Shown here: positions 1,946 to 12,008 of the stretch, one piece after another
Layout: every line of letters begins with the position of its first letter
Position numbering within the stretch: position 1 is the stretch's first letter
Source: a virus
Lineage: Duplodnaviria; Heunggongvirae; Uroviricota; Caudoviricetes
Length of the DNA stretch: 12,008 bases
Virus record (IMG/VR): IMGVR_UViG_643348545_000014
Direction: 5' to 3' (one strand)
Position numbers and translations under genes: made by a program
Notes under the pieces: model-generated
Seen by the model: the letters and a program-made list of their open reading frames with translations, nothing else
Told to the model about the DNA's origin: nothing
The model's database searches: none

Positions 1946-2093
1946 CGGGTATCACAGATATGACAAACACGAAAAAAGCGGCCCCGATATGGAGCCGCCT
2001 TTCTGAACAATTAACCCGCTGCGCCTTATGTGTATATGATCCCAAACATAAGCACGGGGATGATAGCCGCTATCAGGCTGGTGGGCAATGCAA

Positions 2094-2282
2094 TCAGTCT
2101 GGTTCAGTTCGTTGCCATACCTGCAATGAGCGCGTTTCCCTGTACTCTTTAAGGAATTGCTCAAGGGCAAAAGCACATGGCGCGAATCTTTCTGATTCAT
2201 GCTCTATCTTTCTGCGCCGTCTTTTCCGTGCCGGTGATAATGTTTTGGTCAATTCTTTATCGGTCATTGTGTTGTCCTGCAT
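2094..2282 (-). CDS. Hypothetical small basic protein (57-62 aa, KRRRRK motif), downstream of the RHH gene on the minus strand
   Basis: ORF with ATG start; the internal ATG (MTDKEL...) has an AGGA-like RBS. No family recognised. Confidence 0.3.
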   Translation of the reverse strand: MQDNTMTDKELTKTLSPARKRRRRKIEHESERFAPCAFALEQFLKEYRETRSLQVWQRTEPD

Positions 2283-2324
2283 AGCAATGCGCCGTAATAC
2301 CTCACACCACGGCGCTGATAGTTT

Positions 2325-2516
2325 TTATCCTTTGGGTTCTATACCGCGCCGCTTTAGTTCAGTACGCCCCAACTCTTTAAGCCAGTTGGCTAGGCTTATG
2401 CCGTCGCTCTGTGCTTCTTTATCGAATTGCTCTTTTAGCTCTGGAGAAATTCGCATTCTGAATTGTGGGGATTGCCCGTCCCCTTTAGGGCTTTTATCGC
2501 GTTTGATTGTTGACAA
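2325..2516 (-). CDS. Ribbon-helix-helix (Arc/CopG-like) DNA-binding protein, candidate island repressor
   Basis: The segment FRMRISPELKEQFDKEAQSDGISLANWLKELGRTEL fits a beta-strand plus two-helix RHH pattern. A TTG start has an AGGTG RBS 5 nt upstream; an internal ATG gives a 44-aa alternative. The gene is divergent from the rightward replication operon. Confidence 0.5.
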   Translation of the reverse strand: MSTIKRDKSPKGDGQSPQFRMRISPELKEQFDKEAQSDGISLANWLKELGRTELKRRGIEPKG

Positions 2517-2561
2517 GTGGTCACCTATTGAATTAGCCTTTCTATTGTTAGGTGGTCACCT
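2510..2561 (+). promoter_or_regulatory. Candidate rightward promoter (TTGACA-18 bp-TAGCCT) with two GTGGTCACCT operator-like repeats 35 bp apart
   Basis: TTGACA at 2510-2515. Identical 10-mers GTGGTCACCT at 2517-2526 and 2552-2561, each containing the palindrome GGTCACC, placed in the spacer and just downstream of the predicted start site. Confidence 0.45.
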
Positions 2562-2650
2562 TAACACAAGAGCACTTAAAAAAGCAAAGCCCCGCAAGTG
2601 TCATTACCACTCGCAGGGCTTCTAACCAACAACGTAAACTAGGAGCCGTT

Positions 2651-3208
2651 ATGGTTGCCGTAAATCATATACCACACCTTGTACACACACAAACGGCCTT
2701 TGTGTGGCGTTTTCTGGCCCTGAATATCGGAGAAAAAAACCGCTTGATCGCCACCAGCAAAAATGGCTATGATTCCCGCGCACCTCATAAAACGGGTGTC
2801 GGGATTAGCCTCCTGAAAACAACTGAAGCGCACAGCACGCGCCCCGCGTGTTTTTTTGTGCCGCATAGTCACACCTTATCAATGGTGGGCTGTACGGGGG
2901 CGGAGCAATCCGCGCCGGTTTCTTCAGTGTCCGGTAAGGCTAACCCTGTACAGTCCGCCACCAGCGAAATTAGCCTTTTGCGTGGCGGTTATCTTAACCA
3001 CACTGAGGAGGCTGCCAACATGGCTACTATCCCTACCCTTGTACATTCTCAAACCGCATTTATCTGGCGCTTTATCATCTTTGGCGCGTCAGAATCTCAA
3101 ATCATCCACGTAACCGCCTGGACGGAACGCGAAGCGCGTAGCCGTTGCCCGTCCGGTTGTATTGCGGTATTCGCCGCCCGTATTCGTCAGGGGGTGTGCC
3201 ATGCCTGA
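2651..3208 (+). CDS. Hypothetical protein with internal tandem duplication (shared motif LVH[TS]QTAF[VI]WRF); may be two genes (2651.. and 3020..3208)
   Basis: ATG 2651 has an AGGAG RBS 5 nt upstream; in-frame ATG 3020 has a GAGGAGG RBS 8 nt upstream. The two halves are paralogous at the protein level with diverged nucleotides, which argues for coding selection. Confidence 0.45.
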   Translation: MVAVNHIPHLVHTQTAFVWRFLALNIGEKNRLIATSKNGYDSRAPHKTGVGISLLKTTEAHSTRPACFFVPHSHTLSMVGCTGAEQSAPVSSVSGKANPVQSATSEISLLRGGYLNHTEEAANMATIPTLVHSQTAFIWRFIIFGASESQIIHVTAWTEREARSRCPSGCIAVFAARIRQGVCHA

Positions 3209-3527: not shown

Positions 3528-3827
3528 ATGAGAACATATTTATCTGGCTTGACTGCCAGCGGTTATGCACACCCCAAAATTATCCCCGGCGCTATTTATC
3601 TGGATAAGAACGGTAACAGAGTAACGGTAAAAGAACTGATGTTTGACCGTGTTTATTTTATCCGTGATGGATATTCATTTCTTAGTTCGCTGAACGTGGA
3701 GATCTTTATTTGCAGATTCCGGCGGGAAATCCCGACTTCCAGAAATAACCATGTGTCACGTGTGGATGTGGATAAAAAACTACAGGAACTGAAAAACATG
3801 ATTGCCGCGTGGAGAGAGCAGAAATGA
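3528..3827 (+). CDS. Hypothetical protein (99 aa)
   Basis: GGGGA RBS 9 nt upstream; its stop overlaps the primase ATG (ATGA), indicating translational coupling. Confidence 0.5.
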   Translation: MRTYLSGLTASGYAHPKIIPGAIYLDKNGNRVTVKELMFDRVYFIRDGYSFLSSLNVEIFICRFRREIPTSRNNHVSRVDVDKKLQELKNMIAAWREQK

Positions 3828-5965
3828 AAAAAGCGCCAAATTTAAAACACCAGCCGCGTGACAAAATGACGGAAGTCATCATTTTTGCGGGTAGTGATGC
3901 CTGGGCACATGCGAAACAGTGGCAGGAACAGGACGGGCGACTGGCTGGCGATAACGTGCCTCCTGTCTGGCTTGGAGAGCAACAACTTGCCGAACTGGAT
4001 AAGCTGCAAATTGTGCCGGAAGGCCGAAAATCAGTACGCATATTCAGGGCCGGACATCTTGAGCCAGTAATGATCAAGGCGATTGGTCAGAAGCTGGCGG
4101 CGGCAGGCGTACAGGATGCAAATTTTTACCCTGATGGAATGCACGGTCAGGAGGTGGAGAACTGGCGCGAATATCTGGCCCGTGAGCGGCAGAATCTTTC
4201 TGATGGTCTGGTTATTGAGTTTCCGGTAAAGAAAAAAGATACCGGAAGCCATAGCGATGACGAATTAAAGCCACGCGTTGAAAGTCGCGCCGATGGTGTT
4301 TTCTGGGTAACGCCCAAAGTGGATAAGCAGTCAGGCGAAATTATCCGGCCTGAGACGTGGTTATGTTCTCCGCTTGAACTACTGGGAACGGGGACGATCG
4401 GTAAAGAGCATTACCGCGTCATGCGCTGGAAAAAATTAGCAAATCATGAAGTCATCACAATGGCGATCCCGTGTGGTGGCATTGGCGACCGTGACGGCTG
4501 GCGGTTGCTTAAAGATCACGGGCTGAACGTGACAACAAACGGCAAATACAGGGCTATCCTGGCTGACTGGATGCAGTTAAGCGGAAGCCATGAGGAATGG
4601 CAGTTAAGCACAACAACGGGCTGGCATTTTGACGCGTACATCATGCCGGACGGTTCAATCATTGGTGATTCTGAAAAACCGATCCTGTTTACCGGAAAAA
4701 GTGCCGCTATTAATGGCTATTCGGTTGCGGGTACGGCGGAGGGCTGGCGCGACAGCGTGGCGCGGCTGGCTGGTGGCAATCCGTCCATGATGCTGGGTAT
4801 TGCCACGTCACTGGCAGCACCGTTGATTGGCCTTGTTGGTGCTGACGGCTTCGGGGTACATCTTTTCGAACAGTCATCGGCAGGGAAAACCACCACGCAG
4901 AACATCGCATCAAGTTTATGGGGAGAGCCAGACTCACAACGGCTGACCTGGTACGGCACAGCGTTAGGTATCGCTAACGAGGCAGAGTCGCACAACGACG
5001 GGCTGTTACCCTTGGATGAAATAGGCCAGGCCGGAAACGCGCGGGAGGTGTCCACGTCAGCCTATACGTTGTTTAACGGTTCCGGGAAATTACAGGGGGC
5101 GAAGGACGGCGGCAACCGGGAGATAAAACACTGGCGCACGGTGGCAATCAGCACCGGAGAAATGGACGTTGAGACATTCCTCAAAACGGAGGGGATAAAA
5201 GTCAAAGCGGGGCAGCTTGTCCGCCTGCTTAACGTTCCGATGGAAAAAGCCACGCACTTTCACGAATACAGCACCGGAAAGGCGCACGCAGACGCGTTAA
5301 AGGATGCCTGGACAGAAAATCACGGGGCAGCGGGTCGTGAGTGGGTTAAATGGCTGGCAGGCCACCAGCAGGAGGCAAAGGATACGGTAAGGGAATGCCG
5401 CGAACGGTGGCGCAACCTGATACCGGAGAGCTACGGCGAGCAGGTCCACCGCGTGGGTGAGCGTTTCGCCATACTGGAGGCCGCGCTTGTGCTTTCCGGT
5501 CATGTAACTGGCTGGGCCGCGCAGGAATGCCGGGACGCAATACAGCATAACTTTAATGCCTGGGTGAAGGAGTTCGGCACGGGTAACAGGGAATTTAAAC
5601 AGATGGTTGAACAGGCTGAGGCGTTTTTGTCGTCGTTCGGGTTCAGTCGATACCTTCCTTACCCAAACAGTGATGAACGTGATTTACCGATTAAAGACCT
5701 TGCCGGATACAGAAAGGGGAGTATCAGAAATGAAGATGATGAGTTCCGTTTTTACACGTTTCCTCATGTGTTTGAGGGGGAGATCGCACAGGGATTTAAC
5801 CCGTCCCACTTTGCCCGCGCGTTGAGTGCTGCAGGAATGCTGGAAGCGGGTAACGATCGCCGTTACAAGAAAAAGGCGCTCGGCAAAATTGGGGGGAAGC
5901 AGCATGTTTTTTACGTACTGATGTTCCAGCCTGAGGCAGAAGATTACCCCCCCTGTGTGAGGTGA
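3824..5965 (+). CDS. Satellite replication protein: primase/replicase with a P-loop NTPase-like segment (Pri-Rep-like)
   Basis: About 713 aa from ATG 3824 (GGAGAG RBS; the ORF track begins at GTG 3809). Contains a P-loop-like SSAGKTT. Large size, position after alpA, and the iteron array immediately downstream all fit a replication initiator. Family assignment is by layout and motif only. Confidence 0.75.
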   Translation: MKKAPNLKHQPRDKMTEVIIFAGSDAWAHAKQWQEQDGRLAGDNVPPVWLGEQQLAELDKLQIVPEGRKSVRIFRAGHLEPVMIKAIGQKLAAAGVQDANFYPDGMHGQEVENWREYLARERQNLSDGLVIEFPVKKKDTGSHSDDELKPRVESRADGVFWVTPKVDKQSGEIIRPETWLCSPLELLGTGTIGKEHYRVMRWKKLANHEVITMAIPCGGIGDRDGWRLLKDHGLNVTTNGKYRAILADWMQLSGSHEEWQLSTTTGWHFDAYIMPDGSIIGDSEKPILFTGKSAAINGYSVAGTAEGWRDSVARLAGGNPSMMLGIATSLAAPLIGLVGADGFGVHLFEQSSAGKTTTQNIASSLWGEPDSQRLTWYGTALGIANEAESHNDGLLPLDEIGQAGNAREVSTSAYTLFNGSGKLQGAKDGGNREIKHWRTVAISTGEMDVETFLKTEGIKVKAGQLVRLLNVPMEKATHFHEYSTGKAHADALKDAWTENHGAAGREWVKWLAGHQQEAKDTVRECRERWRNLIPESYGEQVHRVGERFAILEAALVLSGHVTGWAAQECRDAIQHNFNAWVKEFGTGNREFKQMVEQAEAFLSSFGFSRYLPYPNSDERDLPIKDLAGYRKGSIRNEDDEFRFYTFPHVFEGEIAQGFNPSHFARALSAAGMLEAGNDRRYKKKALGKIGGKQHVFYVLMFQPEAEDYPPCVR

Positions 5966-7401: not shown

Positions 7402-7608
7402 ATGGCTGAAGAGAAAAAAGGCGGTATTTCGGTGTACATAAGCCCCGACATCGTGAAGGCGCTCAAGGAACGCCACCAGCAGAACGTAAAAGCAGGCATT
7501 GCGGCAGGACTTGATCCGCTGGCGATGGTTGAGCCGTCAACAGGCTGGCAGGTACGCGCCTATTTACGCGCGGCGCTGGGTATGAATCAGGTTCACGGGG
7601 GTGAATAA
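7402..7608 (+). CDS. Hypothetical small protein (68 aa) translationally coupled to the major capsid gene
   Basis: AAGAGG RBS; its stop overlaps the capsid ATG (TAATG). Function unknown. Confidence 0.5.
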   Translation: MAEEKKGGISVYISPDIVKALKERHQQNVKAGIAAGLDPLAMVEPSTGWQVRAYLRAALGMNQVHGGE

Positions 7609-8663
7609 TGACAGTAAAAGCAATATCACTTAACACTAACCAGCTTTTTGCGTACCTGAATCGCGAGGATATTGCGGAATTTAAATTCAGTCCGCTGTTT
7701 ACCGCGCTGTTTTTCCCGAACGTGGCGACATTCAACACACAGGACATCATGTTAGATAACCTGGATATTGAAGAAGTCACTATGTCGGCGTTTTGTTCGC
7801 CTATGGTGGGTAGCCAGGTTCAGCGCGATAAAGGGTACGAAACAAGCATTATTCGCCCTGGCTACATGAAGCCAAAACACGAAATCGATCCATTAAAAAC
7901 AATAATGCGCATGGCTGGAGAAGATCCAGCACAGCTTAACGACCCTACCTACCGCCGTATGCGCCTGATTACTGGCAACATGCGCCGCCAGATAAACGCC
8001 ATTAAAGCGCGCGTGGAATGGCTGGCGGTAAATGCGGTAACGACCGGAAAAAACATCATTGAGGGCGAAGGCATAGAGCGCTATGAAATCGACTGGAAGA
8101 TACCGGAAAAAAACATCATAGAGCAGGCCGACGGTAAAAAATGGTCAGAGCAGGACAAAGACATACACGACCCAATCTATGACATTGAGCTATACGCAGA
8201 TCAGGCAGGTTGCCCCGCAAACGTCATGATTATGGGCGTTGATGTATGGCGCATGTTACGCAGCTTTAAAAAATTCCGTGAACTGTACGATCTCTCCCGT
8301 GGTTCAGAATCCGCCGCAGAGCTGGCATGTAAAAACCTGGGCGAAGTGGTGAGCTTTAAAGGCTATCTTGGTGATCTGGCCCTTATCGTCTATTCCGGCA
8401 AATACACTGACAGCGACGGCACAGAAAAATATTTCCTTGAGCCTGATTTGCTGGTCCTGGGCAACACCAACAATAAAGGGCTGGTGGCCTATGGTGCGAT
8501 TATGGAACAGGAAGCGGTAAGAACGGGCGCAACGCAAAACATGTTTTACCCGAAAAACTGGATTGAGGACGGCGATCCGGCGATTGAGTACGTGCAGACG
8601 CACAGCGCACCGCAGCCGGTTCCGGCAGATATTCGCAAATTTGTTACCGTCAAAATTGGTTAA
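7608..8663 (+). CDS. Major capsid protein, lambda gpE-like
   Basis: 351 aa. Multiple conserved blocks against lambda gpE (recalled): FKFSPLFTALFF vs FKFDPLFLRLFF; PGYMKPKHEIDP vs PGYVKPKHEVNP; EDPAQLNDPTYRRMR vs EDPQNLADPAYRRRR; GYLGDLALIVYSGKY vs GMYGDVAIVVYSGQY; YPKNWIEDGDPA vs YPKNWVTTGDPA. Confidence 0.9.
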   Translation: MTVKAISLNTNQLFAYLNREDIAEFKFSPLFTALFFPNVATFNTQDIMLDNLDIEEVTMSAFCSPMVGSQVQRDKGYETSIIRPGYMKPKHEIDPLKTIMRMAGEDPAQLNDPTYRRMRLITGNMRRQINAIKARVEWLAVNAVTTGKNIIEGEGIERYEIDWKIPEKNIIEQADGKKWSEQDKDIHDPIYDIELYADQAGCPANVMIMGVDVWRMLRSFKKFRELYDLSRGSESAAELACKNLGEVVSFKGYLGDLALIVYSGKYTDSDGTEKYFLEPDLLVLGNTNNKGLVAYGAIMEQEAVRTGATQNMFYPKNWIEDGDPAIEYVQTHSAPQPVPADIRKFVTVKIG

Positions 8664-8675
8664 CGGGGGGATTCT

Positions 8676-9011
8676 ATGGACACTCCATACATTGAGTTAT
8701 TTGCAGGCAGTCAGCAGGTATCCACGACGCTGGTACATTTTGCCGCTGATGCTGGCGTTATTCAGGAATTTACCCCGCTGATGCTGGCGGACAATGGCGA
8801 GTTTAAGCCGTGGGATGGTCAGGAATCTGGCAAGGCTGTTTATCTGACTTCGTACCCCGTGGACACGTCAAAGCAGAAATCAGCACAGTGTTACAAGACG
8901 GGGATATTTAATATCGCCGCCGTAAACTGGCCTGAGAGCGCCGACACTGACGCGAAAAAATGCGCCGCCTTTGCGGGTTCTGGCGTATCCGTTCAGCCGC
9001 TGGCGCGATAA
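8676..9011 (+). CDS. Head decoration protein, lambda gpD-like
   Basis: 111 aa. Matches to lambda gpD (recalled): TPLMLAD vs TPLMLD, WDG, YKTGIF vs YKSGTF, WPESADTDAKKCAAFAGSGVSV vs [28 protein letters not shown] RBS. Confidence 0.8.
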   Translation: MDTPYIELFAGSQQVSTTLVHFAADAGVIQEFTPLMLADNGEFKPWDGQESGKAVYLTSYPVDTSKQKSAQCYKTGIFNIAAVNWPESADTDAKKCAAFAGSGVSVQPLAR

Positions 9012-11522: not shown

Positions 11523-12008
11523 TCAGAACGTCCAGACCACACCCGCCTGAGTTGTGCTGCTTTCTTCACGGGAGAAACGGCTGTCGATACCGAGCGTCAG
11601 GCCCGTCAATGTTTGCTCAAAGCCAGCTCCCGCATCAGTGTTCACGTTGTTGCGGCTGTTAATTACCGAACTCCACATCGCCGTATCGTAATTAACGCCT
11701 TTTACGCTACCAAGACGCCCACGCACGGTGTCCAGTTCTGCATCAAATACCAGCGGTTGTGCTGCCGCCATATTCAGCACATCCGTGGTTGAAGGGGGCA
11801 TTTGTACGCGATTCTCTGCGAGACTCCAGCTATGGTTGCCATTATCCAGCAAGGTATATTCATACGTACTGATATCAACAACGCTTCCGGCATTGCCCAA
11901 CGTAAATGCCGCATCACCGCGCCCTCCTTTAATCGTGGGATCAGTCGCCGCGCCATAAACCTGTAGCACTCCATTATTGATCGTAGTCTGGTTTACCGCG
12001 CCACCCAT
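11523..12008 (-). CDS. C-terminal 161 aa of an autotransporter-like outer-membrane beta-barrel protein; possibly a truncated gene or fragment, with the true start perhaps beyond the window
   Basis: YTLLDNGNHSWSL junction-like motif, then AMWSSVINS...AGFEQTLTGLTLGIDSRF resembling the first barrel strands of AIDA/Ag43-type autotransporters, ending in VVWTF with a terminal aromatic. Double stop TGA TAA. Only about 60 residues follow the barrel start, far fewer than the ~250 of a full barrel. Confidence 0.45.
   Translation of the reverse strand: MGGAVNQTTINNGVLQVYGAATDPTIKGGRGDAAFTLGNAGSVVDISTYEYTLLDNGNHSWSLAENRVQMPPSTTDVLNMAAAQPLVFDAELDTVRGRLGSVKGVNYDTAMWSSVINSRNNVNTDAGAGFEQTLTGLTLGIDSRFSREESSTTQAGVVWTF

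Follow-up and report, generated by a model that had tools for sequence, protein, structure and literature searches.

An Arc-like ribbon-helix-helix gene, twin putative operators and a predicted antisense RNA in the presumed early control region of an EcCICFT073-type island

The DNA analysed here, 12,008 nucleotides of the IMG/VR virus record IMGVR_UViG_643348545_000014 (the window), is by its gene content and order a phage-inducible chromosomal island (PICI) of E. coli of the EcCICFT073 type, and the stretch at positions 2094-2650 and just beyond is probably the control region of its early (replication) operon. A small leftward gene in this stretch encodes an Arc-like ribbon-helix-helix (RHH) protein that would repress the operon through two palindromic boxes at the rightward promoter (P_R), and a hairpin in the leader of the operon would form the end of an antisense RNA that adds a second layer of control. 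In relatives the two boxes change in concert with each other and with the beta-strand of the protein, and the hairpin is kept as an RNA structure of the minus strand. A first-pass annotation, made from the letters alone, had listed a 63-amino-acid open reading frame (ORF), a TTGACA, two identical 10-mers, a hairpin and a second ORF at 2094-2282, all of which are present, and had called the region a lysogeny/induction switch, a label that is plausible in the light of the comparisons given below.

A predicted Arc-like protein

The RHH gene is read leftward from a TTG start codon, the complement of 2514-2516, which overlaps the TTGACA of P_R at 2510-2515. Homologues have an ATG at the same codon position (for example a 74%-identical E. 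coli relative), and in the alignment of the family the N-terminal 20 residues are conserved across genera and Met21 is not; because of the shared ATG and the conserved N terminus the full-length 63-residue reading is taken to be correct. A database search gave 54 relatives, nearly all of 63-64 residues, from Escherichia, Providencia, Xenorhabdus, Proteus, Morganella, Dickeya, Pantoea, Erwinia, Serratia and other genera, and substitutions between homologues fall mostly at codon position 3 (44/34/181 at positions 1, 2 and 3). In PHROGs the protein matches 'Arc-like repressor' (E=5e-7), and when the family profile was compared with solved structures the best match was P22 Arc (1b28, E=0.003), with PQFRMR aligned to PQFNLR of Arc. 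The AlphaFold2 monomer model has a predicted local distance difference test score (pLDDT) of 83 overall and above 90 over residues 21-60, and its residues 17-24 are extended and followed by helices at 25-37 and 42-56, which is the beta-strand and two helices of the RHH superfamily. The top Foldseek matches of this model are all Arc (1myl, 1par; template modelling score 0.77-0.90, root-mean-square deviation 1.2 Å), followed by AmrZ, CopG and NikA. The model and the profile together bear out the earlier call of an RHH-type protein and argue that the 63-residue protein is an Arc-like RHH protein.

Most of the homologues are named 'HicB family antitoxin' at NCBI and JGI, and the 'HicB' of such islands was listed in a 2026 survey as a toxin-antitoxin accessory gene (PMC13612085). 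The Pfam HicB match of the window protein is below threshold (20.4 bits against a cut-off of 21) and covers profile positions 18-48. HicB of a HicAB pair was rejected as the identity of the protein, as 63 residues leave room only for the RHH part and the N-terminal HicA-binding domain is absent; nor was an adjacent, co-transcribed hicA found, since the control region lies upstream and no downstream gene is conserved in 80 loci. A type II toxin-antitoxin pair in general, with the RHH protein as antitoxin and the product of the downstream ORF (orf62) as toxin or partner, would be in keeping with the given names, with the weak HicB match and with the autoregulation of RHH antitoxins through palindromes, and Kawano et al. 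(PMC1891008) read the RHH and primase-helicase genes near some symE homologues as toxin-antitoxin-like. This explanation was rejected, and we hold it to be highly improbable, since nothing lies downstream of the RHH gene in 18 of the 80 loci and the others have about 50 unrelated singletons there. Elsewhere, RHH genes of this family have either no companion or various unrelated genes behind them, one being a SWIM-finger gene, and what is conserved is their position relative to the early operon. The partnership of orf62 with the RHH protein that had been suggested in the first-pass annotation fails as well, since orf62 is absent from the 80 other RHH loci and the same ORF follows a YlcI/YnfO gene in EcCICFT073.

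Twin boxes that covary with the protein

The 10-mer GTGGTCACCT occurs exactly at 2517-2526 and 2552-2561 and nowhere else in the window, the two copies being 35 bp apart, and with at most one mismatch it has 4 matches in the 12 kb against 0.43 expected. The survey of relatives covered 80 loci that encode RHH relatives, one per species, from about 25 genera of Enterobacterales, together with a Pasteurella element. Comparison of these loci shows that the conserved unit is the 12-mer A(A/G)GT-GGTC-ACCT, found here as O1 (AAGTGGTCACCT) and O2 (AGGTGGTCACCT); the twin repeats keep the putative operator role proposed for them earlier, and the 10-mer forms the core of the boxes, but the 7-bp palindrome GGTCACC noted within it is not the unit. 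Nearly all of the 80 loci follow one plan, which is GTTGACA(A/T)G, then A(T/A/G)GT-NNNN-ACC(T), then about 20 variable bases and then AGGT-NNNN-ACCT, with a box spacing of 33-35 bp and with a TAnnnT in the stretch between the boxes, 17-18 nt after the TTGACA. The 63-residue ORF and the repeats are both kept in about 80 loci.

The central four base pairs of the boxes vary between loci (GGTC/GGCC, ACGT, ACAC, CTAT, CCAT, GTAC and ATAT, and AATT in Pasteurella). The centres of O1 and O2 agree with each other, usually in inverted orientation, in 28 of the 33 distinct combinations, and the spacer between them diverges freely while the boxes stay in step. The box centre also tracks two variable residues of the beta-strand that align with Gln9 and Asn11 of Arc, which together with Arg13 read the bases of the operator in the Arc-operator structure 1par. 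The residue pair Q,R or Q,K goes with GG(T/C)C, T,Q with ACGT, A,Q with ACAC, M/L,N with CTAT, I,S with CCAT and P,H with GTAC, and an invariant arginine (R22, the equivalent of Arc Arg13) accompanies the invariant GGT/ACC flanks. There are about ten such protein and box classes among the relatives. The protein class predicts the box centre in 30 of the 33 combinations (mean of 20.4 and maximum of 25 upon permutation, with none of 5000 permutations reaching 30), an association that could in part be co-inheritance because the operator adjoins the gene. The concerted change of two separate sites is a stronger argument than this association, and from the comparison the twin repeats are supported as putative RHH operators, presumably with one RHH dimer for each 12-bp box. 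In the Citrobacter loci L053 and L069 (about 3890-4000) there is a single box; these loci lack the 35 bp from one repeat to the other, and with them the -10 of P_R, a deletion such as recombination of O1 with O2 would leave.

Divergent promoters

Promoters were scored with a simple sigma-70 weight matrix and start sites were placed from the positions of the hexamers. Over 75 loci the -35 and -10 of P_R together score 10.9 bits on average, the version in the window being TTGACA/18/TAGCCT. The overlap between the TTGACA and the start of the RHH gene is kept in about 80 loci, so that the first-pass picture of a leftward RHH gene divergent from a rightward promoter holds. A promoter for the RHH gene was also sought between the boxes, and no -10 with a conserved final T was found there across the loci examined. 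To the right of O2, ACCTTAnCA reads TGnTAAGGT on the minus strand, which is an extended -10, and a TGnTAnnnT is found at this fixed offset in 53 of 69 distinct control regions compared to 7% of shuffles. This leftward promoter (P_L) is the predicted promoter of the RHH gene, whose transcription would diverge from P_R with O1 in the P_R spacer and O2 on the -10 of P_L.

An overlap of O2 with the predicted RHH promoter would also be expected if the RHH protein regulated only itself and the leftward cargo, and if AlpA controlled the rightward operon independently. The slot downstream of the RHH gene is indeed a variable cargo site, and AlpA is the activator that was shown for EcCICFT073 (PMC6092414). 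What makes this unlikely is the geometry, kept in about 80 loci, in which O1 lies inside P_R and O2 lies at about +4 to +15, since the occupied pair would be expected to occlude P_R.

A SymR-like antisense RNA

In a terminator scan the hairpin at 2586-2622 has 15 pairs on the minus strand, counting G-T, and is followed there by GCTTTTTT, and in the plus-strand version three of those pairs become C-A or A-C mismatches. On the minus strand of the window this is the make-up of an intrinsic terminator, a 15-pair stem and then GCUUUUUU. The minus-strand hairpin is the more stable of the two in 79 of 81 loci, by a mean of 6.5 kcal/mol, and over 61 distinct hairpins there are 125 G·U pairs in the minus-strand folds compared to 24 in the plus-strand folds; for the small hairpin around the Shine-Dalgarno sequence these numbers are 87 and 9. 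At least four T within 8 nt after the stem were found on the minus strand in 41 of 67 relatives.

The start of the first rightward gene lies at an unchanging distance, but the proteins encoded there are unrelated from locus to locus (Icd-like, SymE_toxin PF08845 and four or more families besides). The first seven codons of these unrelated genes are alike at the DNA level, and the conserved columns, read leftward, give TAnAnT. All 60 distinct 5' ends have a minus-strand TAnnnT at a set distance from the A of the ATG (+13, +10 or +7), compared to 6.9% of shuffles, and this -10 is kept across at least six unrelated protein families of the first gene. It belongs to the predicted antisense promoter Pas, from which an RNA of about 80 nt would run to the hairpin and carry in the loop of its 5' hairpin the anti-Shine-Dalgarno CUCCU. 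The predicted RNA folds into two hairpins with a minimum free energy of -35.5 kcal/mol (z=-5.2), and the plus strand folds with -21.5 kcal/mol (z=-2.2).

RNAalifold found no structure in 44 antisense-RNA regions aligned plainly with MAFFT, because stems of differing length had been misaligned, and it was replaced by folding of each sequence and by alignment to a covariance model. The model, built from five sequences of one clade, gave full-length matches on the predicted strand and in the predicted place in most loci (E=3e-4 in Pasteurella and E=0.02 in EcCICFT073), and the match in the window is at 2577-2658 on the minus strand (11.6 bits with the filters off). In the resulting alignment 95% of the cells are in standard pairs, as opposed to 74% upon shuffling and 34-53% upon sliding, and compensatory changes are seen in 16 of 17 pairs, but the alignment had been fitted to the very structure that it tests, which biases these numbers in favour of that structure. 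The Rfam scan of the RNA gave no family, the sole match being a weak chance one to rnk_pseudo, and the Rfam symR model (RF01809) had no match at E<=10 in the window at 2480-2780 or in the SymE-encoding locus L065 at 3650-4010, with K-12 as a positive control at 95 bits. A sequence-only profile of the island RNAs finds the one of EcCICFT073 (E=2e-12) and misses K-12 symR.

In the first-pass annotation the hairpin was seen as part of the leader of the rightward operon. The stem with its minus-strand T-run is there, and a hairpin that acts in the rightward mRNA as an attenuator, a processing site or a stabiliser would lie within the predicted 5' untranslated region of the early operon, where the plus strand still folds with the energy given above. 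It is nevertheless very unlikely that this is its role, because both the greater stability and the excess of G·U pairs are on the minus strand, as are the U-run and a conserved promoter about 80 nt upstream. We therefore take the hairpin to be the stem-loop that closes the predicted leftward antisense RNA at its 3' end and that serves as a terminator in the window. The working principle of SymR is seen in the predicted parts, namely a promoter in the first codons of the target, an RNA of about 80 nt over the Shine-Dalgarno sequence and start codon, and a terminal stem-loop; on present evidence the island RNA would work like SymR from outside the Rfam symR family. Table 1 collects the features.

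Table 1. Features of the putative control region and of the leftward unit (window coordinates)
Feature	Position	Strand	Remarks
RHH gene	2325-2516	-	63 aa, TTG start; Arc-like ribbon-helix-helix; beta-strand PQFRMRIS, residues 17-24
P_R -35, TTGACA	2510-2515	+	overlaps RHH start codon; nearly invariant in about 80 loci
P_R -10, TAGCCT	2534-2539	+	18 nt after TTGACA; predicted start near 2546
Putative operator O1	2515-2526	.	within P_R spacer; carries RHH Shine-Dalgarno AGGTGA on minus strand
Putative operator O2	2550-2561	.	about +4 to +15 of P_R; overlaps P_L -10
P_L extended -10, TGTTAAGGT	2558-2566	-	predicted own promoter of RHH gene; predicted start near 2551
P_L -35-like, TTGCTT	2587 to 2582	-	upstream of extended -10
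Predicted antisense promoter Pas	2664-2692	-	-10 TATGAT 2669 to 2664, -35 TTGTGT 2692 to 2687; inside codons 5-14 of first rightward gene
Predicted cis-antisense RNA, about 80 nt	2656 to about 2578	-	5' hairpin, linker UUGGUUAG, 3' hairpin 2622 to 2586, U-run 2583 to 2578
First rightward gene, Shine-Dalgarno AGGAG / ATG	2641-2645 / 2651-2653	+	Icd-like/'ash' reading frame; predicted antisense target
orf62	2094-2282	-	small basic ORF of 62 aa; likely true start 2267, giving 57 aa
Intrinsic terminator	1972-2004	-	14-pair stem then TTTTTT, minus strand only; closes RHH-orf62 unit

A proposed mechanism and how far it holds

We propose that one RHH dimer would sit on each of O1 and O2 and would recognise the base pairs at the centre of the box through its two-stranded beta-sheet. 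On O1 it would lie between the -35 and the -10 of P_R, and on O2 it would lie past the start of P_R and on the extended -10 of P_L; with both boxes occupied the early operon would therefore be shut, the island kept quiescent and the synthesis of the repressor itself limited. Pas, inside codons 5-7 of the first early gene, would fire leftward to give the antisense RNA ending at the hairpin, and this RNA, complementary over their full length to the ribosome-binding site and the start codon of that gene, would block translation of the gene as SymR does for symE. The product of the first early gene, Icd-like here and SymE-like or other elsewhere, is probably toxic. The RHH protein is a likely candidate for the repressor that was never clearly identified in Gram-negative PICIs.

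Apart from the possible co-inheritance and the fitted alignment mentioned above, several points weigh against this reading. The boxes are 35 bp apart from centre to centre, about 3.3 helical turns, which differs from the adjacent subsites of Arc and makes cooperativity uncertain, and the P_R -10 of the window (TAGCCT) is weak. A U-run is missing in 26 of the 67 relatives, including a Pectobacterium/Brenneria group and a Citrobacter group. The binding, the start sites and the antisense RNA are all inferred from comparison, and in the prototype island EcCICFT073 experiments showed that induction requires the activator AlpA and turned up no repressor (PMC6092414).

How AlpA would fit in is suggested by the other end of the leftward unit. 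In the region 1739-2004 the alpA-like gene ends at 1945, and the hairpin at 1972-2004 is the only one after it. Because this hairpin terminates the minus strand and is weak on the plus strand, transcripts that leave alpA rightward may cover orf62 and the RHH gene in antisense. Since there is no plus-strand terminator after alpA, and since a reporter fused downstream of alpA showed AlpA-dependent expression, one may speculate that read-through from alpA crosses the RHH gene in antisense and enters the early operon.

The island and its neighbouring genes

The window carries int, an alpA-like gene, the two leftward genes, the Icd-like frame and genes for DUF4222, a DUF927 primase, a single-stranded DNA-binding protein (SSB), capsid and decoration. 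A near-identical public record is that of E. coli DETEC-S792 (NZ_CP116067), in which the island adjoins tRNA-Pro. The gene order of EcCICFT073 matches that of the window, with int, alpA, two small leftward genes, Icd-like, DUF4222, primase, SSB, PerC, capsid E and decoration. The genes for a lambda E-type major capsid protein (PF03864) and a gpD-type head decoration protein (PF02924) are at 7608-9011 in the window and at 23669-25071 in EcCICFT073 (locus L097), and no portal, protease or terminase gene was found within the window. The features of EcCICFT073-type PICIs are thus present, namely int with alpA, a co-directional primase operon, a tRNA/attachment-site flank, a length of about 10-15 kb and an incomplete set of phage morphogenesis genes, and helper-dependent induction and packaging would be expected by analogy with that type. 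No window ORF was recognised as sid, delta or psu of P4-like satellites in the general scans, a dedicated search for these not having been done. At the right end an ORF on the minus strand (11523-12008) runs off the window; by eye it looks like a fragment of an autotransporter passenger domain and it may mark the end of the island.

A C4/CI-like RNA is present in the window. Rfam matches isrK at 2780-2856 (62 bits) and the C4 antisense RNA at 2878-2965 (75 bits), both inside an 'ash family' pseudogene (2651-3208) of the NCBI Prokaryotic Genome Annotation Pipeline (PGAP), and the 5' end of the first rightward gene is duplicated (2668-2713 and 3028-3073, 74%). It looks as if the conserved leader and the Icd-like gene (3020-3208) had been parted by the insertion of a c4 module like that of P1 immI. 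Neither C4 nor isrK was found in any of 18 loci of other genera that carry the RHH cassette, and by this distribution C4/isrK would be a lineage-specific insertion outside the control module. In a DNA search against phages only the isrK/C4/icd part was matched, and the RHH-operator part was unmatched. The sequence ATTAGCCT occurs three times, on the plus strand only (2532-2539, 2804-2811 and 2969-2976; 0.3 expected), and is complementary to the AGGCTAA of the C4 RNA (2937-2943). Copies 2 and 3 flank C4 and resemble the seqA/seqC sites of P4 or the target sites of P1, and copy 1 coincides with the -10 of P_R and is probably outside the RNA.

Distribution and an exchangeable regulator slot

The layout of RHH gene, boxes and promoter recurs in about 80 Enterobacterales loci and in the Pasteurella element Pmp8. 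In Pmp8 (locus L098, OR544139, 'Pasteurella phage Pmp8', 15.3 kb) the whole module is at 4857-5171, with the boxes GGTATATACC and GGTAATTACC, and consists of the RHH gene, a TTGACA on its start codon, the extended -10, the hairpin with its U-run and a TATAAT at +13 of the first gene. Although deposited as a phage, Pmp8 is PICI-like, because the module lies between an alpA-like excisionase gene and the primase operon.

In EcCICFT073 the regulator slot (L097, 18700-18760) holds a YlcI/YnfO gene, a TTGACG and two copies of GTGGGCCACACCT, and the hairpin and leader, nearly identical to those of the window, are there together with the same orf62. The RHH protein and the YlcI/YnfO protein of EcCICFT073 have no detectable similarity; by eye, the sequence of the latter (TVAARVP..., then two helical segments) looks RHH-like. 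In island L095 (1920-1975) the slot is again taken by a YlcI/YnfO gene, and three GTGTTnAACAC palindromes are at the same promoter. Since the YlcI/YnfO islands and the RHH islands each carry their own repeats, the slot would take alternative small regulators. The first gene behind the cassette varies too, and in L065 (3700-3853) and similar Citrobacter/Leclercia loci it is a SymE_toxin gene (PF08845, E=4e-11). The 5' end of this gene in L065 resembles K-12 symE and has the same TAGAAT on the minus strand, which links the leader of the islands to the symE-symR locus.

orf62 and the plus-strand ORF

Relatives of orf62 usually start at its sixth codon. They were found in Escherichia and Shigella only, with a conserved core SPARKRRRRK...ERFAPCAFALE that has in-frame indels, and the sole family match is phrog_21027 (E=3e-16), a PHROG of unknown function. 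The bias towards third codon positions is weak (39/36/58), the protein is 98% identical to the CFT073 protein downstream of the YlcI/YnfO gene, and orf62 accompanies YlcI/YnfO as often as it does the RHH gene. With this distribution orf62 would be cargo in a variable slot and not an obligate partner.

In NZ_CP116067, PGAP annotates a plus-strand ORF of 221 residues (1960-2625, WP_021577720.1, 'hypothetical protein') in place of both minus-strand genes, and its annotations of related islands have long pseudogenes here that are named 'Icd-like' or 'BRO-N'. If that ORF were the real gene, the minus-strand ORFs would be its shadows, and the codon-position counts cannot separate the two readings because the frames share third positions. 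That the annotated ORF is real is scarcely credible, however, since no family of Pfam, NCBIfam or PHROGs matches it and in relatives the frame is either interrupted or joined to another one (an internal stop in L004, a fusion to Icd in L005), whereas the minus-strand product is modelled confidently with an Arc fold and belongs to a conserved family. The 221-residue ORF and the Icd-like and BRO-N pseudogenes are, on these comparisons, best read as antisense shadows of the two minus-strand genes.

Comparison with known systems

The immunity region immI of P22 has the RHH repressors Mnt and Arc, the divergent promoters Pmnt and Pant, and the antisense RNA sar. As an RHH repressor with overlapping divergent promoters and an antisense RNA, the island arrangement by analogy most resembles this region: the small RHH protein is nearest to Arc, with Arc Gln9, Asn11 and Arg13 aligned to its beta-strand residues, both systems have operators inside the overlapping promoters, and in both a short antisense RNA, predicted in the islands, is directed at the ribosome site of an early gene further downstream. 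They differ in that the islands have separate 12-bp palindromes 33-35 bp apart and not adjacent subsites, have one repressor gene, have the first gene of the operon as the antisense target, and control the replication operon of a satellite and not the antirepressor operon of a phage. The window shares with P1 immI (c4 RNA-icd-ant) the C4 RNA and an Icd-like gene after the control region, unlike 18 RHH loci of other genera, in which C4/isrK is absent.

In K-12, symR is annotated as 77 nt on the opposite strand, starting at the sixth base of symE, and its RNA has a two-hairpin fold with CUCC in the first loop, as predicted for the island RNA. It has been shown that the symR promoter lies inside the first symE codons and that SymR represses symE translation (PMC1891008), and some relatives of the island cassette drive a SymE_toxin gene. 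In contrast, the Rfam symR model misses the window and L065, the island covariance model misses K-12 symR, and K-12 symE is under LexA control whereas the islands have an RHH repressor gene. Kawano et al. (PMC1891008) proposed that regulatory RNAs displaced transcription factors; in the islands, however, the predicted RNA and the RHH regulator coexist.

EcCICFT073 differs in having YlcI/YnfO in the regulator slot in place of the Arc-like gene. In Staphylococcus aureus pathogenicity islands, too, a repressor gene (stl) is divergent from the excision-replication operon (Stl/Str), a role that the RHH protein would have here; the Stl proteins are large helix-turn-helix repressors released by helper-phage proteins (in part from PMC6092414), in contrast to the RHH fold. 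In the literature on repressors of PICIs and capsid-forming PICIs, on ribbon-helix-helix proteins and on YlcI/YnfO, no functional description of this gene or RNA was found. Each kind of part has precedents, palindromic operators with an Arc-type repressor on the one hand and an antisense RNA of the SymR type on the other, but there appears to be no earlier description of the two joined into an exchangeable control cassette of Gram-negative PICIs.

Implications for Gram-negative islands

A wider and more tentative idea, which we regard as possible though less probable than the control role of the region itself, is that the master repressor of Gram-negative PICIs is an exchangeable cassette, either an Arc-like RHH protein of about ten specificities or YlcI/YnfO, placed on a conserved leader that encodes a SymR-like RNA. 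The cassette would then define the immunity type of the island, and induction would come about by helper-driven removal of the repressor or by AlpA-driven read-through. If the reading given here is true, two routine annotations, 'HicB antitoxin' and the plus-strand 221-residue ORF, would be corrected, and a repressor, its operators and a second, RNA-based control layer would be named for a widespread class of phage satellites. It would also explain why the first early gene can be swapped freely, as the regulatory signals reach only its first seven codons, and it would predict about ten specificity classes that do not cross-react and that are set by two residues and four base pairs.

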